From the NCBI GenBank assembly GCA_965216565.1, contig OZ244170.1:5024001-5088000 (forward strand): a stretch of 64,000 nt of DNA, written 5' to 3'. The stretch is from Bythopirellula sp. GTDB taxonomy: Bacteria; Planctomycetota; Planctomycetia; Pirellulales; Lacipirellulaceae. This document shows positions 16,341 to 35,143 of the stretch, piece by piece. The notes under the pieces are model-generated. The model saw only the letters and a list, made by a program, of their open reading frames with translations, was not told the DNA's origin and searched no databases. Both the position numbers and the translations under genes were made by a program. Each line of letters starts with the position of its first letter. Position 1 is the first letter of the stretch.

Positions 16341-18350
16341 CTAGTACTCGTTCCTCGGCCCTCGGTCAACTAAGGTCGCTCCCTCGCTTTTCGCTACCTG
16401 ACGCACTGTTTTGTCTGCTACTTCTTGTTTGAGCTTGGCTACAGCCTCGGCGTAGGGCATGGCTCCCAGATCGCCTTCGATGCGGTCTCGCACGGTGACA
16501 GTGCCGTTTTGAGCATCCTTTTCGCCCACCACCATCATGTAGGGGATCAAGCCGAGCTGGGCCTCGCGGATTTTCGCCCCCAATTTCTGACCCCGGTAGT
16601 CGGCGGTGACGCGGAAACCCTCGGCGGCGAACTTTCGCTCCACCTCCCGGCCATAATCTTCGGATTTTTCGCTGACCGTCAGCACGCGTACCTGTTCAGG
16701 GGCCAGCCAGAGCGGAAACGCCCCGGCAAAATGCTCGATTAACACCGCGATAAACCGTTCCATCGATCCCAGCGGGGCACGGTGAATCATCACCGGCTTA
16801 TGGGCTCCGTTGTCGGCACCTACATACTCGAGGTCAAAGCGATCGGCACTGGGTAAGTTGTAATCGAGTTGGACCGTGCCAAGCTGCCATTCGCGTCCGA
16901 TGCAGTCGGTCACCACAAAATCGGCCTTGGGACCGTAGAAGGCTGCCTCCCCGGGCTCGACAGACATGTCTGGCAAATCCATCGATTCGCACACTTCTTT
17001 TAACGCGGCTTCTGCTCGATCCCAAAGCTGTTCGTCGCCGACGTATTTGTTACTGTCTGGATCGCGAAATCCAAGTCGCACTCGATACTTGTCCATGCCC
17101 AACGATTTGAGGACTCCTTGGGTCATCTCCAGACAGCTGGTGAACTCCTCGGCAACCTGGTCTTCGGTGCAGAAAATGTGGGCGTCGTCTTGGGTAAATC
17201 CGCGTACCCGCGTCATCCCATTCAGTTCGCCGGACTGTTCATAGCGATAGACGGTACCAAACTCTGCGAGCCGCACTGGCAAGTCGCGATAGCTGCGCGG
17301 CTTCGACTTATAGATCATAATGTGGTGCGGGCAATTCATCGGCTTCAGCAGGTAACGCTCGCCGTCCTCCATGTCGATCGGTGCGAATTGGCTATCGCTG
17401 TAGTACGGATAATGTCCCGAGATCTCGTAGAGTTCGACGCGGCCGATGTTGGGCGTGTAAACCGCCTCGTACTTTCTTTTGGTGAGTTCATCCTTTAGGT
17501 AGTCTTCGAGGGTTTGCCGAATGACGGCTCCCTTCGGCAGCCACAGAATCAATCCGGAACCCACGGTTGGATTGACGGTGAACAGTTCCAATTGCTTACC
17601 CAGGACGCGATGGTCCCGTTTTTTCGCTTCTTCTAGCTGGGTGAGATACGCCTGCAACTCTTTCTTGTCGAAAAAAGCAGTGGCGTAGAGCCGTTGCAAT
17701 TGATCGCGGCTTTGATCGCCTTTCCAGTAGGCGCCTGCGACGCTAAGTAGCTTAAACGCTTTGCCGATGTGACGCGTGCTAGGAATGTGTTTGCCGCGAC
17801 AAAGGTCGACGAATTCTCCCTGACGGTAGAAAGATAGACTCTCCTCGTCCGCCAGGCCGGTTTGAATATGTTCGACCTTGAAGGCCTGGCCCATTTCTTT
17901 GCAAAGGCCGATCGCATCGCTGCGCGGCAGTTCTAGACGTTCGAATTTCTCATCGGCCGAGACGATTTTTTTCATCTCCGCTTCGATTTTGGGAAAGTCC
18001 TCTTCGCTAATGGGATGCTTTAGATTGAAGTCGTAGTAAAAACCGTTTCCAGTCACAGGGCCGAATGCCAGGCTCACTCCGTCATAGAGTCGCATCACCG
18101 CTTGCGCCATCACGTGGGCGGCGCTGTGCCGCATGACGTCTAGTGATTCGGCATCGCGATTGGTGAATAGCTTGAGTTGGACTTCGCCGTCGGAAGGCAG
18201 CGGCGAGTGAAGGTCCACTTGGTGCCCATCGACTTCTGCCAGCACAGCGGCCTTGGCTAGCCCTGCGCCGATCTCGGCGGCAACATCGTAGGAAGTGGTG
18301 GGAGTGTTGAATTCGCGCCGACTACCATCCGGCAAAACGACAGTTAACAT
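16341..18350 (-). CDS. thrS: Threonine-tRNA ligase
   Basis: TGS domain, [40 protein letters not shown]. Confidence 0.98.
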
Positions 18351-18909
18351 GAGTGGCTCGTCACCTATTAGATGTCAATTTATTGGATTACTTACGTATT
18401 GGACTACTTACTTGAGCAGTGGGAAGTCGCGTCCGGCCTGAGTGTTTAGCAGACGCATTTAGCTCAATGAAAGTTCGACCGAGAAGTATAAGCGTTCGCT
18501 AGTAACGCAACTACCGTAATGAGCGTGAGCTGTTGTCACGAGTGAATACAAAGTTGACTTTGCCAGCGAAAAGAAGGGTTCCTTAGTCCCCCCTGGGATT
18601 GGCAAACAACGGGCGGGACAGTCTATGACACACCGTTGTCACCTTGGTGGTAAGCAAGATCCAAGTGGCATTAAGCGAGCGAAATCGCATCGAGACGCGG
18701 TTTTATCTGATCTTGTGGCCCCGTGTCTCGCCAAAGCGAAAATGGGGTGGTTTTTCACCAAACGAGCACCGAGGAAAGTAAGAAAATTCTCAAAATTCCC
18801 GCAACCGGCCATTGGTCGTAAGTTGTTAGGAGTAAAGCAGAAAATGGAATTCTTCGCCCATTCTGGCCCCCTTTCCTAAAAAAACTCTATTTCTTGACAT
18901 GCAAAACTG

Positions 18910-18941
18910 TTGCAAGCCGCTTATTCCTTGGTAAAGTGTGA
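18910..18941 (+). promoter_or_regulatory. Candidate sigma70-type promoter of the PEP-CTERM island
   Basis: TTGCAA-16 nt-TAAAGT with TGn extension; GTAAAGTGTGA recurs at 28022. Confidence 0.4.
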
Positions 18942-19244
18942 GGAGGAATGGCAGACATTGTGTCAGCCAGACGGGAATCTTATCTTTCTAGCGACTCGAG
19001 AGATTAATACCACGGCGACAGCAGGTTATAAATCACTTGTGTCGACCCGAGTCCGTATGAATTAAAGGACGGGGTCGCATCACGCGTGGGGCAGGCTTCT
19101 TCGCTATAAGATAAGCATTTTTTTGTTGCGTGAGATTAACCGTATAGTTGACCCTTTAACCATTCATCCCCCAACAAACTAACTAATCAGTATCTCGCTT
19201 AGGATTAATTCGACCTCATGAGACGGGGAATTGGAGTAATGAAC

Positions 19245-20108
19245 ATGAAACATTGTCTGATATTGTCTATGTGCGCTGTCGCTCTGGCAGCTTTTGGCAT
19301 CAACGCCGCAAATGCCGGCGTCGATGTAGCTCTTAACCTAAACTACGTTGATCCCGCCGATCCCAACGACGGTGGATCTTGGACTCTGGTAGCCAAGTCT
19401 GACAATGCGAATGGCATCGCCGGACTAGTAGTACGAATTGAAGACGGCACAATTCCAGCCGCTGGAACCGTCGATGCTGGCATTGGCCATTCCATCAACA
19501 GCGGAGTCCTTCAAATTGGTACCTTCACCGATCCGAATGGCCCGGACTTCGTTGAATTTGTTTACGGTCAAGACCCGAATGCCGGGCTTGTCGGAAACGT
19601 CGGTCTTGCTGCTGCTGCATCCAACCAGGGTCCTGATCCTCTGGGCAATTCCGTCTGGGACGATGCAACAGTTATTGCAACTGGATCCTTCCTTGACGTT
19701 CGTCCGCTAGCTGTTCTGGCAGCTGCTACTGAAATTGATCCTAATGGAGCCATCATTGGTTCTAGTATCAACACTTTCAACATTCGCGGCGATTCGCTTA
19801 ACACGCTCGGGTTGGAAGATCCAAATGGTGCTGGTCTGCTCGCAGGTGATACAGACCGCGATAACGACGTCGACATTGCTGACCTTGGTACCTTGGCTGG
19901 TTCCTTGGCTGGTGGCGTAGGCGGATGGAACGACGGCGACACCGATGGTGACGGCGACGTTGACATTGCTGACCTTGGTGCTCTGGCTGCTAGCTTGGCT
20001 GTCGGTTCCGGCACACCTGCTGCAGTTGGTGCTGTTCCTGAGCCAACCACAGCACTGCTCGCTCTGTTTGGAGTTGCTCCTTGGGCTCTCCGCCGACGAC
20101 GAGCGTAG
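19245..20108 (+). CDS. PEP-CTERM protein with tandem dockerin/EF-hand-like repeats
   Basis: Signal peptide (ANA cleavage); GDTDRDNDVDIADL and GDTDGDGDVDIADL; VPEP-TM-RRRRA; GGAG 8 nt before ATG 19245. Confidence 0.9.
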   Translation: MKHCLILSMCAVALAAFGINAANAGVDVALNLNYVDPADPNDGGSWTLVAKSDNANGIAGLVVRIEDGTIPAAGTVDAGIGHSINSGVLQIGTFTDPNGPDFVEFVYGQDPNAGLVGNVGLAAAASNQGPDPLGNSVWDDATVIATGSFLDVRPLAVLAAATEIDPNGAIIGSSINTFNIRGDSLNTLGLEDPNGAGLLAGDTDRDNDVDIADLGTLAGSLAGGVGGWNDGDTDGDGDVDIADLGALAASLAVGSGTPAAVGAVPEPTTALLALFGVAPWALRRRRA

Positions 20109-20243
20109 GTTTAGTAACTAATCAGTTTGTTTCGGAACGAACTGAGGCACTTATAGTTAATTTGGTTAATGTGATCCTGCGAAGAAAGATAGTATCTGTT
20201 TCTGCACGATCGAAACATTTGTAATTCATGAGGATGTGATCTA

Positions 20244-20909
20244 ATGAAAAAACTTGTCGCACTAGCTATTGTAGCTACGCTTGTATTGGGTGTATCCAGC
20301 GCAAACGCGTTGATTATCACGGGTAACCTCACACCATCTGGTCAGGTAAACGACGCCTTCGGTGGCGGCTTGGGTGTGCTTGACGTGTACACAATCGTTG
20401 CCGATAACACGGTAGCTAACGGTGGTACAGGCACACCTGTAACTGCTATGGACCTCACGTTCGATGGTATTTTCGCCCAGGTGCAGAATGCTACCTTTGG
20501 AACGAACACCCCATCCCCGAAGCAATCTGACGTAGCTGCGTTTGGTCCTGATGCTCTTGCTCAAGACACACACTTCCTTCCAACGCTCGTTGAGCCAGGT
20601 CCACCGATTCCACCACCAACAGAAGGTATTATCACCAATGGGGCTCCCGGCAGTGGATTGGCCTCTGGACTACTCAGTAGCCAAGTTGCCATTGGTGGTT
20701 TAGACCAAGCTGAAGCTGTAGCAATCGCTCAGATTGTTGTTCAGGCTGGTACAGTACCAGCTGGTACCTTCCAAGGTACAATTGCTATCGCTGGAAACTC
20801 CACTCCAATTCCAGTCGCTGGAGTCATCGGCGTTCCTGAGCCAGGCACAATCGCTCTGGCTGGCTTGAGCCTTGTTGGGTTCTTGGCCAACCGTCGTCGT
20901 CTTGTCTAA
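20244..20909 (+). CDS. PEP-CTERM protein, unrecognised AQDTH-family domain (copy 1)
   Basis: MKK signal peptide, AQDTHF...PPTEG, VPEPGTIALAGLSLVGFLANRRR. Confidence 0.9.
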   Translation: MKKLVALAIVATLVLGVSSANALIITGNLTPSGQVNDAFGGGLGVLDVYTIVADNTVANGGTGTPVTAMDLTFDGIFAQVQNATFGTNTPSPKQSDVAAFGPDALAQDTHFLPTLVEPGPPIPPPTEGIITNGAPGSGLASGLLSSQVAIGGLDQAEAVAIAQIVVQAGTVPAGTFQGTIAIAGNSTPIPVAGVIGVPEPGTIALAGLSLVGFLANRRRLV

Positions 20910-20967
20910 GACAAGCAACGATATGAGTTAGATTGATCGGAGTTAGATCAGTCAACATGTAAGTTTC

Positions 20968-21005
20968 AAAGGTTCCCTCGTCTACGGGCGAGGGAACCTT
21001 TTTTT
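20968..21005 (+). terminator. Intrinsic terminator
   Basis: AAAGGTTCCCTCGTC-TACG-GGCGAGGGAACCTTT followed by a T run. Confidence 0.9.
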
Positions 21006-21210
21006 GTTTCTGCCCTAATTTTCTTCGACCCTCTTCTTGCACATTCAAAAGGCTATCTCTGAATCGGATTAGGGCGGTTTTGCAAGGGCATGATTTTCAT
21101 ATCCAAGAGTGTGTTGAAATGGCGTAAGGACGAATTGGTGGGCAGTGTCTAAAATGGAATACGGAGACGCGAAGAACTCGTATGGGTACAGGTACGGAGC
21201 AGAAGAAACT

Positions 21211-23229
21211 ATGAGTTCAGAAGATCAGGCATTCCTTCTTTCCCAGCTACGCTCAGTGCTAACAGTGTGCGTTGTATACATGCTGGCGGGTCTAACAGCG
21301 TTGTGTATCCAGTTGGAATCACGAGCGCAAACGTTCATTGACGTAACTGCAGGTGCGGGGATAAACCACACTCAAATTCCCGGCCCTCCAGGTCCATTCT
21401 CAGACCGAATGAGTGGCGGCGCAACAGCTGCCGACTTCAATGGCGATGGTTGGATCGATCTATTCGCGACGCGGATGAACGGGACCGACATGATGTACAT
21501 GAACAATGGGAACGGCACTTTCACCGATGTATCGGCCGGAGCTGGCTTTACCATACCGACGAAAACAAATGGGGCGGCAGCTGGCGATATCGACAATGAT
21601 GGCGATCTGGATTTGTACGTGACCTCCGTTTTTACCGATCAATACTATTTGTATATCAACGATGGCCTGGGAGGTTTCACCGAACAAGCTGTGGCTCGTA
21701 ATGCAGATGTTGACATCGACCCAGCTTTCTCGGGCAGTCGTCGTGGAAATAGTGTTTCGTTTGGAGATTACGATAGAGACGGCTACTTAGACATCCATAC
21801 CAACGACTGGGGACACCGTCTCACACCAGGTGGCGAGGTTCCAGACAGCTACACCGGTGCACGCCTGTTGAGGAACCTCGGTGGAGGCTCTGCCGGTTAC
21901 TTTGAAGACACAACGCTAGCCGCGGGGGTATCTCTAGCAACCGACCAGGCCTATACCGCGGATGGCACGATTTTTAAGGGAGTATGGTCGTTTTCGTCCC
22001 GCTTTGTTGATATCGACAAGGATGGTTGGGATGACTTGCTCGTGGCGGGAGACTTTCATTCCAGCCGGCTGTTTTGGAACAATGGAGACGGAACGTTTTC
22101 TGACGGTACGGCCACCTCGGGGGTGGCAACGGACGAGAATGGCATGGGATCGGCTGTCGGGGATTACGACGGCGATGGCGACTACGACTGGTTTGTTACC
22201 TCGATCCATGACCCAAACGAACCTTGCGACGATGGATCGTGTACTTGGGATGGATCGGGAAATCGACTCTACCGCTACGATGGCAATCGCCAGTTTAGTG
22301 ACCAAACAGATTCCGCTGGGGTACGCGATGGCGGCTGGGGGTGGGGGGCTGTGTGGCTCGATTACGACAACGACGGCGATCTCGATCTGTCGATGACCAA
22401 CGGCGTCGATTTCCTTGGCTACAACGATCCAGCCGACGAAGATTACCAATTCAATACCGATCAGATGAGACTTTGGCGGAATGATGGGGCGGGCAGCTTC
22501 ACAGAAGTCGCTACTGCCGAAGGGCTCACCGATACTGGTTCAGGCAAGGCACTGCTCAGCTTCGACTACGACAACGATGGCGACCTCGACTTGTTCAATG
22601 TCAACAACATTGGCGCACCGGTCCTTTATCGGAACGACACAATCAACACGAGCGGAAGCAATGGCAATGCCTGGCTGAAGATCGAAACGGTTGGCAACAT
22701 TAGCAATAAGGATGGCATCGGAGCACAAATTGTCATCGATCCCAATAGTAACGTCGCGGGTGACGAGATCTATCGCGATGTAAACGGTGGCAGCCATTAT
22801 CTGGCGCAGAGTGACATGACTGTGCATGTTGGACTTGGCAACCTGGCGGGTACTATCGATTCGATTTCCATCACTTGGCCCAGCGGTTATACGCAAGAGT
22901 TTACGAATGTGTCCCCCAACCAATTAGTCACGATTACTGAAGGGCTCTTAGCTGATTTCGACAACGACGACGATGTTGACGGAAGCGACCTGGCCTACTG
23001 GTCTTCCAACTACGGCATGTCCACGGGGGCAACGCGTGCCGACGGTGATGCCGATGGCGATGGTGACGTCGACGGCGAAGATTTTCTTCTTTGGCAGATG
23101 CAACATGGCATGTCAGTGAGCAGCGGCATGTCCCTGTCCGCGACAATTACGAGCGTTCCCGAACCGACCTCGGCTGTGCTGTTTGTAAGCATTTCGCTAC
23201 TTCACGCAGGTCGTCGGCGGAAAATTTGA
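21211..23229 (+). CDS. CRTAC1/ASPIC-UnbV family FG-GAP repeat protein with dockerin-like repeats and PEP-CTERM
   Basis: Seven DxDxDGxxD repeats, DGIGAQI...GGSHYLAQ...VHVGLG...ITWPSG UnbV segment, DFDNDDDVDGSDL, VPEP-TM-RRRK; start uncertain. Confidence 0.88.
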   Translation: MSSEDQAFLLSQLRSVLTVCVVYMLAGLTALCIQLESRAQTFIDVTAGAGINHTQIPGPPGPFSDRMSGGATAADFNGDGWIDLFATRMNGTDMMYMNNGNGTFTDVSAGAGFTIPTKTNGAAAGDIDNDGDLDLYVTSVFTDQYYLYINDGLGGFTEQAVARNADVDIDPAFSGSRRGNSVSFGDYDRDGYLDIHTNDWGHRLTPGGEVPDSYTGARLLRNLGGGSAGYFEDTTLAAGVSLATDQAYTADGTIFKGVWSFSSRFVDIDKDGWDDLLVAGDFHSSRLFWNNGDGTFSDGTATSGVATDENGMGSAVGDYDGDGDYDWFVTSIHDPNEPCDDGSCTWDGSGNRLYRYDGNRQFSDQTDSAGVRDGGWGWGAVWLDYDNDGDLDLSMTNGVDFLGYNDPADEDYQFNTDQMRLWRNDGAGSFTEVATAEGLTDTGSGKALLSFDYDNDGDLDLFNVNNIGAPVLYRNDTINTSGSNGNAWLKIETVGNISNKDGIGAQIVIDPNSNVAGDEIYRDVNGGSHYLAQSDMTVHVGLGNLAGTIDSISITWPSGYTQEFTNVSPNQLVTITEGLLADFDNDDDVDGSDLAYWSSNYGMSTGATRADGDADGDGDVDGEDFLLWQMQHGMSVSSGMSLSATITSVPEPTSAVLFVSISLLHAGRRRKI

Positions 23230-23302
23230 CAGGTTCTTAGCTAATGGACTAGACTCTGTTCCTGAGGGCAGTTCCGCAGGCTGACTGATTCACGGGGATG
23301 TC

Positions 23303-23983
23303 ATGCTGCGTGGCACAGTGATTCTATGCGTCTATTGTGTGCTCGGATCCGCTTACGGCTTTCAATCGTCGCGGGCGACAGGCCACCGTTTGCCAGCGTT
23401 TCAGGTCCCCGACACGCTGGGTGATTTGGGAGGTGGCATGTTGGACGTGTACCAGATTTATGTTCACGCTCCGGATTCGTTTACAAAGATCACGGCCTTG
23501 GTCGTCAGCTTTGAAGGCGAATTTGCCCAGGTGCAGCGAGATATCTTCGGCACGCATCTTCCGACGCCGCTGCTCTCCGATCTTGATGGCTTTGATCCGG
23601 CGTTCATTGCTCAGGATACGCACTTCGCAGCATCCCTCATCGTCCTCGGGTCTCCTATTCCCCCGCCGACCGAGGGCATGATTACACCCCCTTTGGGTTT
23701 TGATGGTAGTGGCTTAGCTCGAGACTTGAACAGCAGTCAAGTTGGCATTGCGGGGCCTGATCAGGCACCGACCGTGCTCGTCGCCCAAATTGTATTTCCC
23801 GCCGGCACGGTGAACGGAACTTTTGATGGGCTGTTTGCCGTCGCAGGCAACGCAGGTCAGTCTTTTTCATTTTGTGGTACCTTTGGTGTGCCCGAACCGA
23901 ATTCGGCGGTGTATGCCCTCTTGTCTACGCTTCTGTATGCTACCCACCGACGTCAGTTCTTTGACTGCCCGGGAGGATTGTGA
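23303..23983 (+). CDS. PEP-CTERM protein, AQDTH-family domain (copy 2)
   Basis: AQDTHF, PIPPPTEG, VAQIV, VPEP tail. Confidence 0.85.
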   Translation: MLRGTVILCVYCVLGSAYGFQSSRATGHRLPAFQVPDTLGDLGGGMLDVYQIYVHAPDSFTKITALVVSFEGEFAQVQRDIFGTHLPTPLLSDLDGFDPAFIAQDTHFAASLIVLGSPIPPPTEGMITPPLGFDGSGLARDLNSSQVGIAGPDQAPTVLVAQIVFPAGTVNGTFDGLFAVAGNAGQSFSFCGTFGVPEPNSAVYALLSTLLYATHRRQFFDCPGGL

Positions 23984-24073
23984 TAATTTGCACAGACGAC
24001 CCATTTCTAAGAAGCCAGACCGGTTGCCATGAATTCAAGCGGACAAAGACTACTATGTTGGACGGGAGTCGAA

Positions 24074-24763
24074 GTGAAGAAGTCCATTGCGGCCGTGACA
24101 CTTTTCCTATTGCTTACTCTGTGTGTCTCCAGCGTTCAAGCGTTGATCATTACTGGCCATTTTGCTCCTTCTGGCTTTACTAGTGATGCGTTTGGTGGTG
24201 GCCTGGGTGCTTTGGATGTCTATACCATTGTCGCTGATAATTCGATTACCAACGGCGGCACGGGTACAGCGATCACGGCCTTTGACCTGTCATTCTACGG
24301 CACGTTTGCCCAGGTGCAGAATGCTACGTTCGGCACGAATATCCCGTCGCCTAAGCGTGCCGATGTTGCGCCCTTTGGTGCTCAGGCGCTTGCTCAAGAT
24401 ACTCATTTTCTTCCTGCGTTACTTGAGCCAGGCCCACCAATTCCAGGTCCAACCGAAGGTGTGATTACCAACGGAGTTCCTGGCAGTGGCTTAGCTTACG
24501 GCCTAACCAGTAATCAAGTTGCGATCGCTGGTCCCGATCAGTCGGACTGGATCGCGATTGCTCAAATTGTTGTTCCAGCTGGTACGATCCCCGTTGGTAC
24601 TTTTGATGGTTCGATTGCCATTGGTGGCAACTCGACTCCAATTCCAGTCGCCGGAACAATTCCCGCCCCCGAGCCAGCAGCAGCGTTACTCGCGATGTTG
24701 TGTAGCGGTTGTTTAATGCTGCGGCGAGAGCGGAGCTTGGACGAGGCGCCAAAATCAATGTAG
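24074..24763 (+). CDS. PEP-CTERM protein, AQDTH-family domain (copy 3)
   Basis: GTG start after GGGAG; signal peptide VQA; APEP tail. Confidence 0.87.
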   Translation: MKKSIAAVTLFLLLTLCVSSVQALIITGHFAPSGFTSDAFGGGLGALDVYTIVADNSITNGGTGTAITAFDLSFYGTFAQVQNATFGTNIPSPKRADVAPFGAQALAQDTHFLPALLEPGPPIPGPTEGVITNGVPGSGLAYGLTSNQVAIAGPDQSDWIAIAQIVVPAGTIPVGTFDGSIAIGGNSTPIPVAGTIPAPEPAAALLAMLCSGCLMLRRERSLDEAPKSM

Positions 24764-26146
24764 GATCAGTTCGGTAAACAACTGCAGGTAGAGATAAGAG
24801 GATACAATCCAGTAAGTAGACATATCTCTTACGCTCCACTATTAATGACGCTCACGCTGCTGGGTGTGATGCCCCTTTTGCTTGTGCGCGTTGCGATAAA
24901 ACGAAGAAGTTGGGCATCTTCATGTAGGTGAATAGAATAGCTGGAGTTACTGATCAATTAGGAGGTGAGATATGCGGATCCCTTTGTCTATAGTCATTGT
25001 TAGTCTTGCTTTGTCGCTTTTTATGGCCGTTTCCTGTGCATACGCTTGGCGACTCACCGGGGCTCACTCCGGTCGTACTTATGATGCGTTCAATGGTGGC
25101 CTTGGGGCACTTGATGTGTGGACGATCGTTGCCGACAACTCCATCGCAAACGGTGGAACGGGGGCTCCCATTATTGGTTTTGACCTGACTTTCTGGGGCG
25201 AGTTTGTCCAGTTTCAAGATGGCAGTTTCGGTACAAATATTCCTACTCCCAGAAATTCTGATATCGTCAGATTTGATGCTCAGGCGCTCGCTCAAGACAC
25301 TCACTTCCTGCCTGATTTAGTTGAATTTGGTCCTCCAATACCACCTCCAACAGAGGGGGTTCTCTCTTTTGGTTATCCCGGTAGCGGTTTGGCCTCTGGT
25401 CTAACCAGCAATCAGGTCGCAATCGCTACTCACGATCAAGCGGCTGTTGTCGCGATCGCTCAGCTAGTGGTTCTAAGTGGCACTTATCCTGTAACTACAT
25501 TCGACAAGGAAGGGACTATCACAGTCGCTGGTGACCTAGGTCCCATTGTACTCACGTTTCCCGAGCCCTCGTCGGCGCTGCTCGCGATGTTGTGCAGTGG
25601 TTCTTTGATTCTGCCGCGGGGGCGTAGGTGAATAGTGACGTTCGACCGATGACCAAGTAGAATAGCATACAGCAACCCATCTCTGTGAGGGTAGATCCAA
25701 TAAAGCTCCGTCTTATGCTCGTGGCACTATTCCTAACGCTCACACTTGGCATTTCTAACACCAAGGCGTTAATCATCACTGGCACTCTTGCTCCTTCCGG
25801 CTCTGTTAGTGATGCGTTTGGTGGTGGCCTGGGTGCTTTGGATGTCTATACCATTGTCGCTGATAATTCGATTGCCAACGGCGGCACGGGTACAGCGATC
25901 ACGGCCTTCGACCTGACATTTAACGGCACGTTTGCCCAGGTGCAGAATGCTGCGTTCGGCACGAATATCCCGTCGCCTAAGCGTGCCGATGTTGCGCCCT
26001 TTGGTGCTCAGGCGCTTGCTCAAGATACTCATTTTCTTCCTGCGTTACTTGAGCCAGGCCCACCAATTCCAGGTCCAACCGAAGGTGTGATTACCAACGG
26101 AGTTCCTGGCAGTGGCTTAGCTTACGGCCTAACCAGTAATCAAGTT
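24181..26146 (+). repeat. Near-identical 340-bp direct repeat (24181-24520 and 25807-26146)
   Basis: Six differences by manual alignment; 24327-24520 is identical to 25953-26146. Confidence 0.9.
24972..25631 (+). CDS. PEP-CTERM protein, AQDTH-family domain (copy 4)
   Basis: Strong SD AGGAGG; signal peptide AYA; AQDTHF; FPEP tail. Confidence 0.87.
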   Translation: MRIPLSIVIVSLALSLFMAVSCAYAWRLTGAHSGRTYDAFNGGLGALDVWTIVADNSIANGGTGAPIIGFDLTFWGEFVQFQDGSFGTNIPTPRNSDIVRFDAQALAQDTHFLPDLVEFGPPIPPPTEGVLSFGYPGSGLASGLTSNQVAIATHDQAAVVAIAQLVVLSGTYPVTTFDKEGTITVAGDLGPIVLTFPEPSSALLAMLCSGSLILPRGRR

Positions 26147-26368
26147 ACGATCTCTGGTCTAGATCAGTCGGACGTGGTCGCGATTGCTCAGCTAGTCGTG
26201 CCCCCTGGTTCTTGCCAACCATTTAGCGGCGACGCGTTGATTGTCATCGCCGGTAATCCGAATCCAATCCCCGTGTCCCTTTTTCCAGTTTGTCCCGAGC
26301 CCTCGTCGGCGCTGCTCGCCCTACTGTGCAGTGGTTGCCTGGCCTTGCGATGCTCGAAGAAAATTTGA
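25685..26368 (+). CDS. PEP-CTERM protein, AQDTH-family domain (copy 5)
   Basis: Signal peptide TKA; AQDTHF; CPEP tail; start could be the downstream ATG (MLVALF). Confidence 0.85.
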   Translation: MRVDPIKLRLMLVALFLTLTLGISNTKALIITGTLAPSGSVSDAFGGGLGALDVYTIVADNSIANGGTGTAITAFDLTFNGTFAQVQNAAFGTNIPSPKRADVAPFGAQALAQDTHFLPALLEPGPPIPGPTEGVITNGVPGSGLAYGLTSNQVTISGLDQSDVVAIAQLVVPPGSCQPFSGDALIVIAGNPNPIPVSLFPVCPEPSSALLALLCSGCLALRCSKKI

Positions 26369-26420
26369 CAGCCTGAGGCCAATCAGCTAGTCTCCACAGA
26401 CTGACGGGTCTTTGCCTTCC

Positions 26421-26436
26421 TTGGCACCCTTATTGC
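26421..26436 (+). promoter_or_regulatory. sigma54 (-24/-12) promoter
   Basis: TTGGCACCCTTATTGC matches TGGCAC-N5-TTGC, ~140 nt upstream of ATG 26574. Confidence 0.6.
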
Positions 26437-26573
26437 CTAGATTATTTCTGCTTTGCCAGTGAACACCGCCTGAGATCCCTGCCGCGTAGCTAAGCTGCCT
26501 TCAGGGATGGCTATTGTCTCGGTTCTTCTAGTTCGCTGTTACTTTCACTGGTTATTTAGAGGAATGATGATTC

Positions 26574-27893
26574 ATGTCGAGAGTATGTTTGTTTGCCGGT
26601 TTTGTGCTTTGTATTGTCCATCTAGAGACAACTTCTCAAGCCCAGAGTGTTAGCGTATCCGGCCCGGTGATAGTTCCGGATTCATTGGGCGGCATTGGTT
26701 TCGAACTGGAGCAATATCGGGTGACACTGCATAGTGACGATCCGAATGTGAAGGTAACAGGATTTAACACTCAATTCGTTGGTACACTAGCACAAGTGCA
26801 GAATTTTGCTTTTAGCAATCCCCCGGCGCAACCGACACCTCAGTTTGAAGATGCCGTGCCATTAGGATTGGATGCGATCGCCCAGGACTCACATTTCGTC
26901 GGTGGCTTGATCATTGAAGACCCTCCAAATCTGCCTCCTGTGGAAGGGCCAATATTGAACCTTACGAAGCCTGACAGCGGATTAGCGGAGGGTCTTCTCA
27001 GCAATCTCGTCTCCATTGATCCTAACATACAAGCTCCGTCTCTTCAGATTGCCCAAATCGTACTAGCACCTGGTACTGTAGTGACCATGACTGGCGAAGT
27101 ATTTCTCAACGAAAACGAGGAGCCAATCACCCTCGAGCCTGTCCGGATTGGCGTACCCGAGCCAGGAAGCATCTTTCTTATCCTCCTGGGGAGCATGGTA
27201 TTCGCGCACCGAATATCGCGTAAATCAGCAACGGTAGCCAGTTTTTTCCTGGTTTGTTTACTTTTGAGTAGTCCGGTCACAGCGCAGAGTGTAAGCGTCT
27301 CGGGCCCGGTGATCGTGCCGGATTCACTGGGTGGCATCGGGTTCGATCTTGAGCAATATCGGGTGTCGTTGCACAGCGATGATCCGAACACATATGTGAC
27401 GGCATTCTCATTGATGTTTCACGGTCAGCTTGCTCAGGCCCAATTGGAATCTTTCGGACAAGCTCAGATGAGTGTGGAGCAACGGCATTTAGAAGGTTTC
27501 ACATCCGAACAATTGGCCCAAGATTCTCACTTGCTGGTTCAGCAAATCCTGTCAGGCTGTCCTTGTCCCGGGCCAATGGAGGGTACGATTCTGGATACGG
27601 ATGCTCCTGGCAGTGGGTTTGCTGCCAATCTCATCACATATCCTCAGGCAATTCCTGGGCCGTTGCAGACACCCTCCATCGAACTCGTTCAAGTCGTCCT
27701 AGCTCCTGGAACCAAGGTACGACTAACTGGAAGACTTGCAATCTCGGGCCATCCAGAATCGATCGAATTGCCAACGACGTACATCGGTGTCCCTGAGCCT
27801 GGAGCGATCGGCTTGGTATTAGCCTTGGTCGTGCTTTTGACCCCTTCTAAGCTAAGATCACGACTCCCGCAGCAGAGGTACCCAACGAAATAG
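26574..27893 (+). CDS. Tandem two-unit PEP-CTERM protein (AQDSH-family copies 6 and 7; internal and terminal PEP-CTERM)
   Basis: QSVSVSGPVIVPDSLGGIGF occurs twice; IGVPEPG occurs twice; second signal-peptide-like segment between the units. Confidence 0.88.
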   Translation: MSRVCLFAGFVLCIVHLETTSQAQSVSVSGPVIVPDSLGGIGFELEQYRVTLHSDDPNVKVTGFNTQFVGTLAQVQNFAFSNPPAQPTPQFEDAVPLGLDAIAQDSHFVGGLIIEDPPNLPPVEGPILNLTKPDSGLAEGLLSNLVSIDPNIQAPSLQIAQIVLAPGTVVTMTGEVFLNENEEPITLEPVRIGVPEPGSIFLILLGSMVFAHRISRKSATVASFFLVCLLLSSPVTAQSVSVSGPVIVPDSLGGIGFDLEQYRVSLHSDDPNTYVTAFSLMFHGQLAQAQLESFGQAQMSVEQRHLEGFTSEQLAQDSHLLVQQILSGCPCPGPMEGTILDTDAPGSGFAANLITYPQAIPGPLQTPSIELVQVVLAPGTKVRLTGRLAISGHPESIELPTTYIGVPEPGAIGLVLALVVLLTPSKLRSRLPQQRYPTK

Positions 27894-27944
27894 CCTGTAA
27901 AACTAGGCAAAAGGTACTTTTTCAAAGAATTTAACAAAAAAAGC

Positions 27945-27972
27945 TTGCGGAGTCGGAAAGCCCCATTACAAT
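27945..27972 (+). promoter_or_regulatory. Candidate sigma70 promoter with A/T-rich UP element
   Basis: TTGCGG-16 nt-TACAAT preceded by TTTTCAAAGAATTTAACAAAAAAAG. Confidence 0.45.
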
Positions 27973-28539
27973 ACAACTCAGACGAAGAAGCTGGTGCAGC
28001 CAGCAATTAATTCACCACCCAGTAAAGTGTGATCTAGTGACTTCCTAACAAAACGAATTGCTCCCTTCGGGTAGAGCTATCGTTTTGTTTCTATTTGACG
28101 GCTTATTCCTCTTAGCTTGCCGTCCCTTCTGGTGCCTTGGTTTGCCCAGTTTTATGTCGTTACTTTCTGCGACTCCAAACAGGCCAAATCACTGACCAGT
28201 TTTAACCGCGATTTTGCCGAGACGGCAGAAGAGTCGTTGCAAGCTTTTTCCACTGAGGACCGTAAAGCCTCGGAGCACTTACTAGCTTTTTCAAACAGTC
28301 ACACAACACATATCAGTCGATTACGACTTTAGACCATTAGAGGTTTGTCTTATGAGAAATTGAGAGGTTCGTGCGAGTCGAGCACAACGGTGTGCGAAGT
28401 AGACGAGTCACGAATCGGGGTAGCAAGATCAGGGTCGCCAGGAGGATGACCTGCTATTTTTCGACAAGGAAGAACAACTAATTTTTGAATAGAAAGCAAC
28501 ACCTTCGGGAGTTGCAAACCTCTTACTGGAGAACATCAC

Positions 28540-29541
28540 ATGAGAAAATCTATAACACTTACAATCGCAGCTTTTTCTTTCGCAGTACTATTTGCTGCCA
28601 ACTCGGCCCAAGCCCAAAGCGTCAGCGTGTCTGGTCCTGTATCAGTAGCTGACACGCTCGGCAACATTGGTAACAACCTTGACCAGTATCAAATCTTCTT
28701 GAACAGCGACAGTGGAGCAAACGTCACGGCGTTTGAACTTACTGTGACTGGTAGCCTAGCACAGGCACAGAACTTCTCGTTTGGCAATCACGTTCCTTCA
28801 CCATTACTAGCGGATGTCACTCCGTTTGGTGCTGGTGCAATTGCCCAGGACTCGCACATTGTTCCAGGTCTAGTTATTCCTGGCGCGCCAATCCCACCAC
28901 CAACTGAAGGTCTAATTACTCCCGATGTTGGAGCTCCCGGTAGCGGTTTTGGTAGCGATCTAATGACGAATCCTGTTGCTGTCGCTGGTCCCGACCAGGC
29001 ACCTTCTGTTAACGCTTTGCAGATTGTTTTGGATCCAGGTACCTTCGCTATCTTGACTGGTGAATTTGCAATCGCAGGAAATTCTGATCCATTCGTATTC
29101 GACGAAGTATGTATCGGTTCCTGTAATACCAGTAACACTCCACCCGTAGTCACCGATCTGTTCGCTGGTGAAGACTGGGATCAAGAAACTCAAGCCTTCA
29201 ACGGAACTCCTGCTAGCTATCAGTTGCAAGCTACAGACGCCGAGGATGGTGACGACGATAACCTAAGCTGGACCCTGGACGGTTTCACGGGACCTTTCGA
29301 TGCTGGTGGAAACCCAATCGCTGGTGCTGGAAACGGCAACCAGACTGTCAGTTCGACTGGCTTGTTTGAATGGGACCCAACTGGATCGACCAACGGTTAC
29401 TACTTCGCAGCTGTAACTGTCGAAGACTCCGGTGCCCTGACCGATAGCGGTATCCTCCGCGTTCAAGTTCCTGAGCCAAGCACCATGTTGCTCGCTGGAC
29501 TGAGCCTGGTTGGTGTATTCGCTCGCCGACGTAACAGCTAG
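28540..29541 (+). CDS. PEP-CTERM protein, AQDSH-family domain (copy 8) plus cadherin/Ig-like domain
   Basis: AQA cleavage; AQDSHI; NTPPV...LQATDAEDG...LSWTL...GLFEWDP...VTVEDSG; VPEP-TM-RRR. Confidence 0.9.
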   Translation: MRKSITLTIAAFSFAVLFAANSAQAQSVSVSGPVSVADTLGNIGNNLDQYQIFLNSDSGANVTAFELTVTGSLAQAQNFSFGNHVPSPLLADVTPFGAGAIAQDSHIVPGLVIPGAPIPPPTEGLITPDVGAPGSGFGSDLMTNPVAVAGPDQAPSVNALQIVLDPGTFAILTGEFAIAGNSDPFVFDEVCIGSCNTSNTPPVVTDLFAGEDWDQETQAFNGTPASYQLQATDAEDGDDDNLSWTLDGFTGPFDAGGNPIAGAGNGNQTVSSTGLFEWDPTGSTNGYYFAAVTVEDSGALTDSGILRVQVPEPSTMLLAGLSLVGVFARRRNS

Positions 29542-29581
29542 AGTCTTAGCACTCGGCTGATAAGGAAACTGATGTTTCTCG

Positions 29582-29619
29582 ACGCCCCTTCGCAAGCAAT
29601 TGCGGAGGGGTGTTTTTTT
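29582..29619 (+). terminator. Intrinsic terminator
   Basis: ACGCCCCTTCGCAA-GCAA-TTGCGGAGGGGTGT followed by a T run. Confidence 0.88.
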
Positions 29620-30095
29620 GTTGGGCAGCTCTTCGTAGGATGGCGATTAAGAATTCAGAATTGAAAATCAAGAACAGATTGGAGTGATTCGCTACGGTTG
29701 TTTACTCTGTGAAATCTCTAACAGAACAGTTGATTTCAATTCAACGACGCCTACTATGGAAGTAGAGGCAGATACGAAGAATCATTTGCCTTCCATTCTA
29801 TGAAAAGAATCCCAGGAACAGCTGGCTGTAAACACGAAATTTAGAGGTTTAGTCCCTCGTATCCACTTCGTTGCAGCTCGCTTTCGGCATTGGCATTCTT
29901 TCTTTCAGCACGGCCCGAATAGTGCGGTATTCATTGTTCGTGTGACTCAAGTCGAATGACAGCTCTGAGTTGCAACTAAGTCGAAAGTATTGTCTCAGCA
30001 CACCTATGCCCCGCTGTGTCCTTGCTTTTCATGCCTAGAGACACTGATAACTGCAATCACATCGTACAGAATAATAGCTAAGAGTCTCAGTAACT

Positions 30096-32093
30096 ATGAA
30101 TTTACAACTCATTTCTAGAGTAATTCTCACTTCAGTCGCGTTCATTGGTGCCATTCCATCTCATGCTGCCGACACGGTTGCCAGGCAATGGAATGAAGCT
30201 TTGCTGAATGCAATTCGACTAGATTTTCCGGCTCCGACCGTCCACTCGCGGAACCTCTATCACAGTTCTGCTGCGATGTACGATGCTTGGACGGTTTTCG
30301 ACAACACATCCGAGGGTATTTTCTATCAGCAGAAGCATACCGCACTAGATGTTGAAGCAGCAAGAAACGAGGCAGTCAGCTACGCCGCTTATCGAGTGCT
30401 GTCGCAGCGGTATACGCTGGCGGTTGATCCCAATGCATCACAAATGTTGTTCGACAACGTCATGTCCAGCTTGGGCTACGATCCGGGGGTTACGACAACT
30501 GTTGGTGATACGCCTGCCGCCATTGGCAACAGAATTGCGGAGCAAATCCTAAGTTCGCAGCTTAACGATGGCTCGAATGAGGCCAACGGCTATGCGGACG
30601 ATACCGGGTATGTACCCACTAACGATCCCATGATTGTAGATCACCCCTCAATTACAGGTCCAGGCGGAAATCCTCTGGCGAACCCCAACCGCTGGCAGCC
30701 TCTGTTTATCAATTCGGCTGTCACTCAAAACGGGTTACAGGGACAAGACTTGCAAGAATACATTGGCCCCCACTGGGGAAATGTCGAAACATTCGCATTG
30801 GGAAAGGTTGGCAACCCCCCAGGTCCACACAGTTGGTCGGCAATCGATCCCGGTCCACCTCCGGAGCTTAACGGGGTGGGAGACATTGAGTATCGACAAC
30901 AAACAGTTGAAGTATTGAGGTATAGCAATCTATTGGATCCCAATCAGGGAAACGGAACGCAACTGATTGACATTTCTCCTGCTAGCCAGGGGAACCGCAT
31001 CGTAGGCACTCAAAAGTTTCCTCTCAACCTTACCGGTAACGAAGGATATTCAGTGAACCCCTTTACCGGTCAGCCATACCAAGAGCAACTTGTGAAGCTT
31101 TCCGACTACGGGCGCGTGCTCGCAGAATACTGGGCGGATGGACCTGAATCGGAGACGCCACCCGGTCACTGGAATGTGATCGCCAACGAGGTGTCAGACA
31201 ATCCATTGCTTGAGAAGAAAATCAAAGGCAATGGCCCAGTGGTTTCAGATTTGGAGTGGGACATCAAGCTCTACGCTGCACTCAATGGTGCGGTACACGA
31301 TGCTGCTGTAGCAGCTTGGGGAACGAAGCGTGAATACGACTACGTCCGACCGATTACTAAGATTCGCTATCAGGGGGGCCTGGGACAATCTTCCGATCCC
31401 AACGACACGGCAACCTATCACCCAGATGGCTTGCCACTGGAAGCCAATCTTATTGAGGTGATTACTGCTAGTTCTATTGCTGAAGGTGGAAAACATCGCA
31501 ATGCGTATTTGAATGCCAATCGACTCTCCAACGGAGCTTTCGTCCCCAACCTGAATCTTACCGAGGCTCAAATGGTTGGAAAGATCGCAGTGAAAGCGTG
31601 GAATCATGAACCAATCGATCCCAACACGGAAGTGAGCGGAATTGAATGGATACTTTCAGAGAATTGGGTTCCTTATCAGCAGGACAACTTTGTTACGCCC
31701 GCGTTCGCGGCCTACGTATCTGGGCACAGCACTTTTAGCCGTGCTGCAGCCGAGGTGATGTCTTTATTCACCGGAAGTGAGTACTTTCCTGGTGGGTTGG
31801 GAGAATTAACTATTGGCATGAATGATTTCCTCGACTTTGAAATCGGACCCTCCAGTGACATCACTTTGCAGTGGGCAAAATATTCTGATGCTGCCGACGA
31901 AGCGGGGATTTCCAGACTCTACGGTGGAATTCATGTTGCTCCCGATGATTTTGCAGGCCGCATTATGGGTTCCACCATCGGTAAAGATGCATTCGCACTG
32001 GCGATGCGTTATTTCCAGGGTGTGCCCGAGCCGAGTGCTTTGCTGTTAGCAGGAATGGGGATCTTCGGCATGCTTGCTCGCCGGCAACGCTAA
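30096..32093 (+). CDS. Vanadium-dependent haloperoxidase / PAP2-superfamily enzyme with PEP-CTERM
   Basis: [26 protein letters not shown] vanadate/phosphate-site motifs; signal peptide; VPEP-TM-RRQR. Confidence 0.88.
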
Positions 32094-32179
32094 GATTGCA
32101 ACGCTTGGAACCTGTCACGCAATCGTGTAGATTTGCGTTTATTCAAGGTCCCTGCCCTCTCACCCCTGCTTCCCATCTA

Positions 32180-32614
32180 GTGAAATCTCTCACCGAAGAA
32201 CTTTGGATGGACATCCCCGAGCGGCGGGCGATTGTTTCCTTGCACCAGGATGTCGAGCGGCTCGTGACGGAGAGTGGCGTGCAGGAGGGAATTGTCTTGG
32301 TAAACGCCATGCACATCACCGCCAGCGTGTTTATCAACGACAACGAGTCGGGACTGCATGCCGACTACGAGCGGTGGCTGGAGGGCCTGGCACCGTTCGA
32401 CGCGGGCAGCGACCCCGGCTCCGGCGGGTATCTGCACAATCGCACGGGCGAAGACAATGCCGACGCCCACCACAAACGACAAATCATGGGCCGCGAGGTG
32501 GTGGTGGCCATCACCGAAGGCAAGCTGCACCTTGGGCCCTGGGAACATATCTTCTATTACGAATTCGACGGCCGCCGCCGCAAACGCGTGCTGGTCAAAA
32601 TCATCGGGGAGTAG
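32180..32614 (+). CDS. yjbQ: YjbQ/UPF0047 family (secondary thiamine-phosphate synthase)
   Basis: [37 protein letters not shown] start at 32180. Confidence 0.92.
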
Positions 32615-32868
32615 AAACGCAGAGCTCGCTGAGAATCGCGGAGGGCCGCGGAGTGATATGTTTGCCGCGTTCTGTACCTTCTTTAAGTAGTTCAGCTTCG
32701 AAAGTTACTGTCATTCCGAGGTCTGCCGAGGAATCTAGCTAGACCCCTCGGCAGACCTCGGGGTGACAGTAGGCTTTGGCCTTTGCAGAACAACGGCTTA
32801 CTTGAGTAGCCACTCAAAATCCTGTCTTCCTCCGCGGCCCTCTGCGATTCTCAGCGAGCTCTGCGTTT
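32615..32868. repeat. Nested inverted-repeat element
   Basis: 39-bp IR (1 mismatch) at 32615-32653/32830-32868 enclosing a 32-bp IR at 32706-32737/32740-32771. Confidence 0.85.
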
Positions 32869-32870
32869 AC

Positions 32871-33689
32871 TCACTTCCGGATCATCTCCGAGAATTCCTC
32901 TCGCTCCGCATAGAGAATTGTCTTCGGCGTAATGTAAGCCGCGGCTTTGGTTTCTTCGAACGAACCCTTGCGGACGATCAGTCCTTCGTCGTACGCCATC
33001 TTTGCCGAATGGCCGGGGAGCAGCACGCGGTAGTCGTAGCGAATCCGCCGGGGGGAGATGCGGTTGATATGCCGAGCGATGTTGGTGGTGCAGTTGTTGG
33101 TCATCGTCTCGTAGAACTCCGGCTTGACGGCGAGTTCATTGACGCGGCCAAGCACGTCGGTCAGTAGCAGCCGCGCTTGATCGGGAGTGGCGGTTGTTTC
33201 GTAGAGGTAGACATCCTCGCGGCGATGATTGCCACGCACATTCACTACGTCGCGTTCGTCAGCCAGCACATACATCAGCTCGTATTGCCGAGCACTCCCT
33301 TTCCAAGCTGCGTACTCTTCTCCCACTTCCTTGCGAATCTCTACGCTCACGGCCAGGTGTTCCGGTTTGCCTGGTTCGTTTTCGAATTCGAAACTCAGCA
33401 TCGTGTGCGCGATAGCGGGCATGTTTTCGAATGGGATCACAAAGAAGTCGACACCTCGTAGGGCGTTGAGATCGTATTGCCGATTATTGTGCTCCACAAC
33501 GTAGGTCTCCTCGTCAAAGTACCGGCAATGGCGAACATTGTGGACGACGACCTGGTTCCCCGTAAACTCGGCGTAGGGAAGCACCGCCTGGTCGGGCGAC
33601 CAGTTTCGAGTATTCGAAGGGGCTACGATCTTCGCCGCACTTTGGCAACCGAAGAGAGCAACCAGCAGCAGGAGCCACGGTGTCCGCAT
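32871..33689 (-). CDS. DUF4105 (Lnb-like) domain lipoprotein
   Basis: Lipobox LFGC; AHTMLSF, SVEIRKE, FYETMTNNCTTN. Confidence 0.85.
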   Translation of the reverse strand: MRTPWLLLLVALFGCQSAAKIVAPSNTRNWSPDQAVLPYAEFTGNQVVVHNVRHCRYFDEETYVVEHNNRQYDLNALRGVDFFVIPFENMPAIAHTMLSFEFENEPGKPEHLAVSVEIRKEVGEEYAAWKGSARQYELMYVLADERDVVNVRGNHRREDVYLYETTATPDQARLLLTDVLGRVNELAVKPEFYETMTNNCTTNIARHINRISPRRIRYDYRVLLPGHSAKMAYDEGLIVRKGSFEETKAAAYITPKTILYAEREEFSEMIRK

Positions 33690-33856
33690 CAGATTGGATC
33701 ACAGGGAAAAGGAGCGAAAAGAGAAAAGCAGGGGAGTTTAGCGAGCAGGCAAAAGGCTAGCAAGACCGCCCAGTATGATAGCTTCCGCATGTTAGAATAG
33801 AATTATCAGTCTTCTCTATTTACGCTTCGCGGTCCAAGCATCGAGAATTCACGAGC

Positions 33857-35143
33857 ATGATGTCCCATCCCGACCAGCCGAAGGTCCGCCCATTGGAGCT
33901 AGTTCCGCTATCTAGCCAGCGGGGGATGTATGCACTGCGCGATCCCCACGGCTTCACTGGTACGGTGGCCTTGCCGTTTGCCGCGGCGAAGTTGGTAACG
34001 CTGATGAATGGTGAGCGGACGTTGGGCGATTTACGCCGCGATTTTGAAGAGCACGTCGGCAAGTCGGTCACCCTCGACTACGTGCGGCAAGTCGTCGAGC
34101 AATTGGACGACCTCTATTTTTTAGACAACGAGCGATTCGCCGATCACGAGGCTGCCCAGATTGCTGAATACCAACTGCTTGATGTCCGCCCCGCTGCCCA
34201 TGCGGGGGGGGCTTATCTGGAAGAGGAATCGGCACTGCGCGAACAACTCAGCAACCTCTTCACGTGTGACCAGGGCCCTGGCATTCTCCCCTGGGAGGGA
34301 AACGTAAACAGCGACTTTTCAAATGCGAGCCCTGACCGACTCTGTGGGGTGATGAGCCCCCACATTGATTTCCATCGTGGCGGACCTACCTTCGCTTGGG
34401 CCTACGATCGGATTGTCACGGAGTCGGATGCAGAACTATTTGTCATCTTGGGAACGGCTCACACTGCCTTGTCGGGGTTATTTAGCGTTTCGCAGAAACA
34501 CTTTGATACACCATTGGGCCAAGCAGAGACCGATCGCGATTTCGTAGAGAGTCTCTATCGGCGATTTCAGTTGCGAACGGACGAGGCGGCGGCCCTGCAA
34601 GTCTTCCGCGATGAATTGCCGCATCGGCACGAACACTCGATAGAGTTTCAGGCTTTGATGTTACAGTTTGCATTGGGAGGCAGACGCGACTATCGGATCG
34701 TGCCGATCCTAGTGGGCTCGTTTCACCCTTTCATCACCCAAAGCCGACTGCCTAACGAATCAGCGGCAGTCGATAGCTTTGTATCCGCTTTGCAAGAGAC
34801 GGTAGCTGGTTGCCGTAAGAAGGTGTGCTTTGTGGCTGGCGTAGACATGGCCCATATTGGCTCGCAATTTGGTGATGAAGGCGAAGTGGACGACGAGCGG
34901 CTCAAAGAACAATGGGCCGACGACCAGCAACTATTGTCCCAAGCATGTGCCGCAGACTCAGCAGGGTGGTTCCAGCACGTCGCAGCCTCGAAAGACCGAA
35001 ACCGAATTTGCGGCCTAGCTCCCGTGTACACAATGCTGGAAGCCACAGGCACGCATCGCGGCGATCTCCTGCGGTACGACCAGGCCGTGGCTGAAGATGG
35101 GTCGTCGTGTGTCAGCTTTGCCAGCGTGGCATTCTACGAGTGA
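33857..35143 (+). CDS. amrB: AmmeMemoRadiSam system protein B (MEMO1 family), long form
   Basis: RPAAHAG, SPHID, GTAH, EHSIEFQ, DMAHIG, ICG motifs. Confidence 0.9.
   Translation: MMSHPDQPKVRPLELVPLSSQRGMYALRDPHGFTGTVALPFAAAKLVTLMNGERTLGDLRRDFEEHVGKSVTLDYVRQVVEQLDDLYFLDNERFADHEAAQIAEYQLLDVRPAAHAGGAYLEEESALREQLSNLFTCDQGPGILPWEGNVNSDFSNASPDRLCGVMSPHIDFHRGGPTFAWAYDRIVTESDAELFVILGTAHTALSGLFSVSQKHFDTPLGQAETDRDFVESLYRRFQLRTDEAAALQVFRDELPHRHEHSIEFQALMLQFALGGRRDYRIVPILVGSFHPFITQSRLPNESAAVDSFVSALQETVAGCRKKVCFVAGVDMAHIGSQFGDEGEVDDERLKEQWADDQQLLSQACAADSAGWFQHVAASKDRNRICGLAPVYTMLEATGTHRGDLLRYDQAVAEDGSSCVSFASVAFYE

Follow-up and report, generated by a model that had tools for sequence, protein, structure and literature searches.

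A planctomycete locus holds eight clustered copies of one domain that belongs to no named family. The locus lies in a window of 64,000 nucleotides (the whole stretch of DNA that was analyzed) from a Bythopirellula genome (G000; 5.21 Mb, one contig), and the copies are carried by seven plus-strand open reading frames (ORFs) starting at positions 20244, 23303, 24029, 24972, 25685, 26574 (two copies), and 28540, as a preliminary description of this DNA had counted them. They align as one domain, with a core identity of 29–85% and 22 columns invariant in all eight. A profile of the domain matched all eight copies at E ≤ 1e-67, with the next match in the genome at E 0.39 and no further copy beyond the array by this search, and a second profile, for which only 17 distant homologs from outside were used, recovered the same eight at E 4e-13 or better and gave no other match below E 0.4. 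The acidic composition described earlier, almost free of basic residues, was confirmed (0–5 K+R and 11–17 D+E per ∼147 residues), and the two N-terminal subfamilies are real, the LIITG type comprising 20244, 24029, and 25685 and the QSVSVSGP type comprising 26574a, 26574b, and 28540, with 23303 and 24972 as variants. Across 92 family members, D87, S/T88, E106, and V144 are invariant (92/92), so the earlier claim of invariant Gln-Asp-x-His and Glu-Gly motifs stands for the Asp and the Glu and fails for the His (71/92) and the Gly of 'EG' (12/92), with Q58 present in 86/92. A polar set (Q58, S70, D87, T88, H89, and E106, within window 20307–20831) is nearly invariant despite the low family identity, and could serve to hold a metal or to build a Ser/Thr-Gln ester link that the protein forms by itself, such links being found in Gram-positive adhesins.

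Every array gene ends in an xPEP motif with a hydrophobic run and basic residues behind it, read directly, and begins with a basic-hydrophobic-AxA signal-like pattern, read by eye (hydropathy was computed for 26574 only). Sec export and exosortase handling of such PEP-CTERM tails are well established, the genome encodes an exosortase (PF09721, E 1.5e-54, over cut-off, at C1:4778479), and 238 of its ORFs end in a PEP-CTERM-like tail by a simple rule. With tails on all array genes and an exosortase in the genome, the surface location given in the preliminary description is predicted to hold. That description had left out the tails, along with the conserved upstream gene, the swapping of domains from genome to genome, and the internal sorting signal of 26574 that are set out below. 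In the cited sources, exosortase is believed to cleave proteins of this kind, which reach the surface by a route described as unsettled (PMC1569441; PMC12188702). The PF07589 profile is above its cut-off in three of the seven genes (20244, 26574, and 28540). Copy 1 (20244..20909, +) combines a signal, the domain (20307–20831), and a canonical PEP-CTERM tail (PEP at 20835; PF07589 27 bits, cut-off 20.7), followed by a terminator-like hairpin (20968..21001, +; 15 pairs, then a T run), and copy 8 (28540..29541, +) combines a signal, the domain (28615–29124), an Ig-like domain (∼29130–29465; Big_9 below cut-off), and a canonical PEP-CTERM tail (PEP at 29470; PF07589 33.7 bits), with a second such hairpin behind it (29581..29614, +; 15 pairs, then a T run). 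Degenerate tails, which keep the xPEP, hydrophobic, and basic pattern and lack a PF07589 match, are found in copy 2 (23303..23983, +; no match at E ≤ 0.1), copy 3 (24029..24763, +; true start probably later), copy 4 (24972..25631, +), and copy 5 (25685..26368, +). An FG-GAP/ASPIC-UnbV gene with a dockerin-like module and a PEP-CTERM-type tail (21145..23229, +) stands within the array.

Copies 6 and 7 share one frame (26574..27893, +), in which a signal and a domain are followed by a PEP-CTERM helix (internal PEP at 27156), a basic patch, a second hydrophobic stretch with a signal-type cut, the second domain (from 27285), and a terminal PEP tail (27792). The best PF07589 stretch of this protein is the internal one (residues 194–211), and its topology suggests that the chain may be cut into two proteins at the internal PEP-CTERM/second signal peptide. 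Contigs of runs X1 and X4 span the junction without differences, both from one sample that may be the window's own source. Four ORFs with an internal PEP were flagged in the genome, of which three look real; besides 26574, the ORFs at C1:2868943-2871678 (-) and C1:4897787-4900840 (-) have a signal-like stretch behind their internal PEP-CTERM.

It is very improbable, in our judgment, that function is confined to copies 1 and 8, with the middle copies and the fused gene 26574 as duplicates of recent origin in decay. Such decay would fit the missing PF07589 matches of copies 2–5, the tract shared by copies 3 and 5 (24181–24520 against 25807–26146, six differences in 340 bases), and the absence of a 26574-type fusion from the few close homologs, but every frame is open and all eight copies retain Q58, D87, S/T88, H89, and E106 at 29–85% identity. 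Arrays of degenerate-tail copies also recur in five other genomes (G004, G010, G528, G539, and G530), and the two-unit layout with the array domain recurs in P0027, G478, and G482 (the last split by an insertion), which argues against decay. In the preferred reading given below, copies 1 and 8, with canonical tails and their own terminators, would be the founding units, and the middle copies would have arisen later by duplication.

The inability of the preliminary description to place the domain in a named family was upheld by wider searches, and the parts of the cassette described below are of known kinds while the array domain family itself is unnamed. Pfam gave no family match for the domain in any of the 92 members, and its cohesin profile matched 0/92 at E ≤ 0.05; the named NCBIfam PEP-CTERM families (THxN, FxDxF, QFxxD, MHFG, PepA, XDP1, and others) reached at best 27 bits against cut-offs of 50–125, the matches of the array proteins centering on the tail and falling below the curated whole-protein cut-offs. 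A PDB sequence search with the domain returned nothing significant (best E 0.12) and no cohesin chain, and ESM Atlas matches for it were all under 0.9. Close relatives are scarce (three outside proteins by word search; one of 60 related genomes), and an HMM scan of 1.84 billion representatives yielded 29 matches, namely four from the window, two false, two fragments, and 21 usable. P0018 and P0029 were discarded as repeats without the motifs, and P0023 and P0031 were left out of the member set as fragments. Within the host's bacterial family, a wider profile found the domain in 19/120 genomes and the widest in 32/120 at E ≤ 1e-12; a count of 106/120 (alignment A4) was rejected as inflated because that profile had absorbed the PEP tail. 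A phylum sample gave 3/400 other genomes, two of them weak, and since nine candidates were scored per genome, this figure samples the range beyond the family too thinly. In a quick, midpoint-rooted tree of members, the eight copies and three metagenome proteins form one clade, and no copy lies elsewhere in the genome, in agreement with the earlier proposal of local expansion; copies group by genome on this tree (31 label changes against 57 when shuffled), near-copies driving the effect. At L053:6440-9154, L055:8765-10732, and L064:7007-8170, proline-rich linkers connect two or three domain copies ahead of a single terminal PEP-CTERM, a scaffoldin-like layout, and L062:7008-8909 (G517) holds the domain gene in three near-identical tandem copies.

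The predicted model of the copy-1 domain (pLDDT 94.2, pTM 0.90) is all-beta and consists mostly of strands, which bears out, at the level of a model, the β-sandwich suggested before. Eleven of the 15 best rows of a structural comparison are cohesins (Z 6.0–6.9, rmsd 3.5–4.1 over 112–119 residues), among them 3kcp, which we take to be a cohesin, whereas the adhesin domains of Mfa5 (Z 7.5) and Als9 (Z 7.2–7.5) tie with or outrank them, Als3 is also among the best adhesin rows, and no row reaches Z 8. Foldseek against the PDB gave no match at E ≤ 0.001, and viral structures gave no significant match. In fold class, the domain is thus predicted to be a cohesin/adhesin-type β-sandwich whose modeled likeness to cohesins is tied with that to adhesin domains (Z 6–7.5) and is not decisive. 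The adhesin rows speak for a reading, plausible though rather doubtful, in which the array proteins and their counterparts in relatives are stand-alone variable adhesins or coat proteins that bind polysaccharide or host surfaces and whose swapping and duplication would be driven by phages or predators, with linkage as the sole reason why the dockerin-like module next door moves along. The Ig-like domains of Als/MSCRAMM-type and Mfa5 adhesins are the top structural rows (Z 7.2–7.5, rmsd 3.0–3.6), but identity to the array domain is 6–10%, and the array domain differs in being a single domain with different sorting; under Z 8, the modeled match may reflect just a common arrangement. PEP-CTERM proteins that stabilize the contact between cells and extracellular polymeric substances in Zoogloea, Aquincola, and Nostoc, according to the part of the source consulted, are in line with an adhesive role (PMC12188702).

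The cassette starts divergently from thrS (16341..18350, -), a landmark here and in several relatives, and its gene A (19218..20108, +) encodes a signal peptide, a predicted cohesin-fold domain (19317–19826), a duplicated dockerin-like module (19830–20012), and a PEP-CTERM tail (PEP at 20037). Among named thrS records, those of Bythopirellula polymerisocia (79%) and Lacipirellula limnantheis (76%) come closest, which places the host probably within Lacipirellulaceae. The first domain of gene A is found in 98/120 family genomes, mostly as a single copy, and its model (pLDDT 72) returned cohesins in all of its best 15 structural rows (Z 8.2–9.7, rmsd 3.4–4.8 over 119–135 residues; best non-cohesin row Z 8.0), which points to a cohesin β-sandwich topology in the model; gene A had no Pfam cohesin match. 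The duplicated D-rich loop of the module was read directly, PF00404 giving 10.3 bits against a cut-off of 22.9, and 19 of 24 aligned kin of the module match PF00404 at E ≤ 1 (best 2.8e-9). The common dockerin-like type of the genome carries a Trp in the recognition helix (121/148 repeats, 99 ORFs), and the helix of gene A differs from it; in other genomes, cassette-type modules give one strong match per genome, with two in G004. A second gene-A-like domain in G000 (C1:3823442-3824068, +) has a PEP-CTERM and, judged by length, no dockerin-like module.

Our preferred reading, held tentatively and with somewhat less than even confidence, is that gene A is an adaptor and the eight copies a swappable anchor array, together forming a cohesin-like/dockerin-like surface cassette. 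The conserved cohesin-fold domain of gene A would bind the common dockerin-like type of dozens of PEP-CTERM proteins, its one-off dockerin-like module would take the slot domain (the domain of the gene or genes behind gene A) as its partner, and slot domains would serve as surface anchors for that module. Recombination would exchange dockerin and slot domains as one unit, breaking off within gene A at one side and within the final gene of the array at the other. The eight copies are likely one of the two halves of a surface lock-and-key pair that is specific to the lineage. Against the adaptor and anchor reading, it leaves unaccounted for why one private dockerin should have eight receptors and why each partner should have its own anchor. 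A complex prediction of copy 1 with the gene A module and two calcium ions scored 0.12 and 0.07 (mark 0.32) and speaks neither for nor against the pairing. A bolder extension, which we regard as unlikely, is a Lacipirellulaceae-wide exchangeable cohesin-dockerin lock-and-key, in which the conserved adaptor docks dozens of exosortase-sorted proteins on a lineage-specific anchor array that comes in tens of types, each excluding the others; since the two halves of the pair would sit on the surface, cross-linking of same-type cells is also conceivable, as a kin code for rosettes or aggregates.

The slot itself is conserved in position and variable in content. Of 40 additional loci selected through gene A and nothing else, 37 have a PEP-CTERM gene that lacks a dockerin in this place, and the domain type of that gene varies by genome, forming ∼32 clusters among 62 loci (similarity link 0.2), a diversity that variable adhesins would also show. 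One-type arrays per genome recur (G027, G478, G004, G010, G528, G539, and G530), and some slot types are ∼115 residues long. Comparison of profiles of 20 other slot proteins with the array domain gave a weak match (probability 55%), and common descent of all slot types is therefore not established; the cohesin Pfam family had no match in 30 slot and upstream proteins. G020 retains gene A (47%), the Ig-like domain and tail of copy 8 (59%), and downstream genes that we take to be yjbQ, Memo, and hisG, as in the window, while both of its slot genes carry another domain type and its dockerin type is also different. One block exchange would explain G020 under the adhesin reading as well. A relative in run X5 matches window 18300–19576 and 29137–29540 in two contigs, which hints that this exchange also took place between close strains. 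Many genomes have a second dockerin-like gene (type B) inserted behind gene A. Weak gene-A-like domains occupy the slot in G508, G490, and G518, and insertion-sequence-like DNA, recognized by eye, interrupts the cassette at L056:9335-11599 (G482) and L071:9130-10577 (G012).

The slot type varies together with the dockerin-like module beside it. In the 26 first loci, picked partly by domain hits, the nearest neighbor of the slot was among the top three by dockerin in 21/26 and by the N-domain of the same protein in 9/26 (shuffle mean 3.2), and in 36 new loci the figures were 22/36 and 15/36; four of the 40 new loci had been dropped, three without a slot gene (one also without a dockerin) and one with a slot gene but no dockerin. 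Over all loci, which include kin and are not independent and whose domain boundaries were set by rough rules, the dockerin tracks the slot in 40/62 against 20/62 for the N-domain (shuffle mean 3, maximum 12). Same-slot pairs were distinguished with an AUC of 0.91 by dockerin and 0.74 by N-domain, a control handicapped by two upstream gene types that are not homologous there. Rank correlation is weak when all pairs are taken together (rho 0.16) and absent across the two upstream gene types (rho 0.03, p 0.40), and none of the 62 loci is a near neighbor of the window's slot type (best 0.08). Dockerin and slot adjoin on the DNA, and one-block exchange therefore explains the co-variation without binding, as linkage alone would under the adhesin reading. 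That reading is harder to reconcile with the place of exchange, which in 19/19 pairs with like N-domain and unlike slot (non-independent) ends before the dockerin-like module, with dockerin similarity ≤0.45 throughout, and not at the conserved tail of gene A; with the layout of gene A, which reads as a cohesin-fold domain plus a dockerin-like module; and with distant proteins in which the array domain is fused to the same dockerin-like module. Such fusions occur in P0020, P0028, P0034, and L013, and out of the 62 loci, the window has the dockerin that best matches those of P0020 and P0034 (0.54 and 0.52; next 0.40 and 0.39).

The arrangement of the array in G004 repeats the gene order of the window with another domain type, including a 48% identical FG-GAP gene at the same place. 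The G004 counterpart of that gene (L072:1779-3764) has a dockerin-like module 61% identical to that of G004 gene A; the window's FG-GAP gene, unlike it, carries the common dockerin-like type. The repeated order, together with canonical copies 1 and 8 that flank degenerate ones and have their own terminators, would suit major and minor subunits of a fiber or surface lattice, copies 1 and 8 being the bulk and the middle copies minor variants, a reading that the preliminary description had offered and that we consider improbable, no result pointing to such polymers in particular. Pilin and adhesin domains among the lower fold rows would also suit it, as would the extreme T bias at fourfold sites that gene A shares with copies 1 and 8. 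T at these sites is 0.40–0.43 in 19218–20909, 24972–25631, and 28540–29541, where the genome averages 0.21, a value within the top 0.5% of 2945 ORFs. High expression, as it might be read from this bias, is not supported by a codon score against 11 housekeeping reference genes picked by motif, which does not single out these genes, and sigma-70 sites are not enriched (six found, 9.8 expected). A fiber or lattice is further opposed by the monomer model, which is confident over almost the entire length with no segment under pLDDT 50, and by the occurrence of the domain within large multidomain proteins (P0028, P0034, P0035, and L066).

To our knowledge, most PEP-CTERM proteins are without an assigned role, and we know of no identified partners of planctomycete dockerin-like modules. 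As far as the consulted parts of the sources go, the array shares with PEP-CTERM/exosortase substrates (Haft et al., 2006, PMC1569441; PF07589, TIGR02595, and PF09721) a signal-like N-terminus, an unrecognized mature part with PEP, membrane helix, and basic cluster behind it, and a host genome with many substrates (238) and one exosortase match; it differs in a mature domain outside the named PEP-CTERM families, its place in a conserved cassette with swapped content, and one gene with an internal tag. Cellulosomal adaptors, as described in the sections consulted, carry a cohesin and a dockerin of other specificity, with largely species-specific recognition (PMC12484212), and the cassette resembles them in the predicted cohesin-fold plus dockerin-like layout of the small gene A protein, in its common and private dockerin-like types, and in lineage-specific recognition positions. 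By the same account, it differs from cellulosomes in having a diderm host, a PEP-CTERM tail on every part, and mostly single-domain genes rather than poly-cohesin scaffoldins, and in having no cohesin Pfam match and no cellulase in the cassette (PMC12484212). For Nemodlikiaceae, the "Planctosome" hypothesis (Andrei et al., 2019, PMC6461901), as far as consulted, likewise proposes a non-cellulosomal cohesin/dockerin surface complex with an adaptor in planctomycetes, but it concerns a different lineage and rests on peptidases and a lamin-tail/P-domain anchor of 2,210 aa; the accessible main text contains no "PEP-CTERM", and its description includes no variable cassette. In the window, Pfam on the 13 genes of 19218–35143 found no poly-cohesin scaffoldin, no lamin-tail/P-domain anchor, and no dockerin-borne hydrolases. 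A literature search, for which subscription journals lay mostly outside reach, found neither the cassette nor a paper joining PEP-CTERM with cohesin or dockerin, and nothing relevant for PEP-CTERM as a polyprotein; the accessible parts of PMC12078418 and PMC11557425 hold nothing on the cassette.

As candidates, the locus offers an adaptor gene that is nearly universal and a slot of changing content, and cultured relatives supply natural pairs of both kinds, cognate and non-cognate. Should binding be limited to cognate pairs, the cassette would amount to a code for surface assembly, akin to serotypes, in a diderm phylum, and many orthogonal cohesin-dockerin pairs could be drawn from it; otherwise, what would remain is a domain family without a name and a hypervariable surface cassette that had been overlooked. 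Directly after the array, window 30096–32093 encodes a vanadium haloperoxidase-like protein (DUF6851, VCPO_2nd) with a PEP-CTERM.
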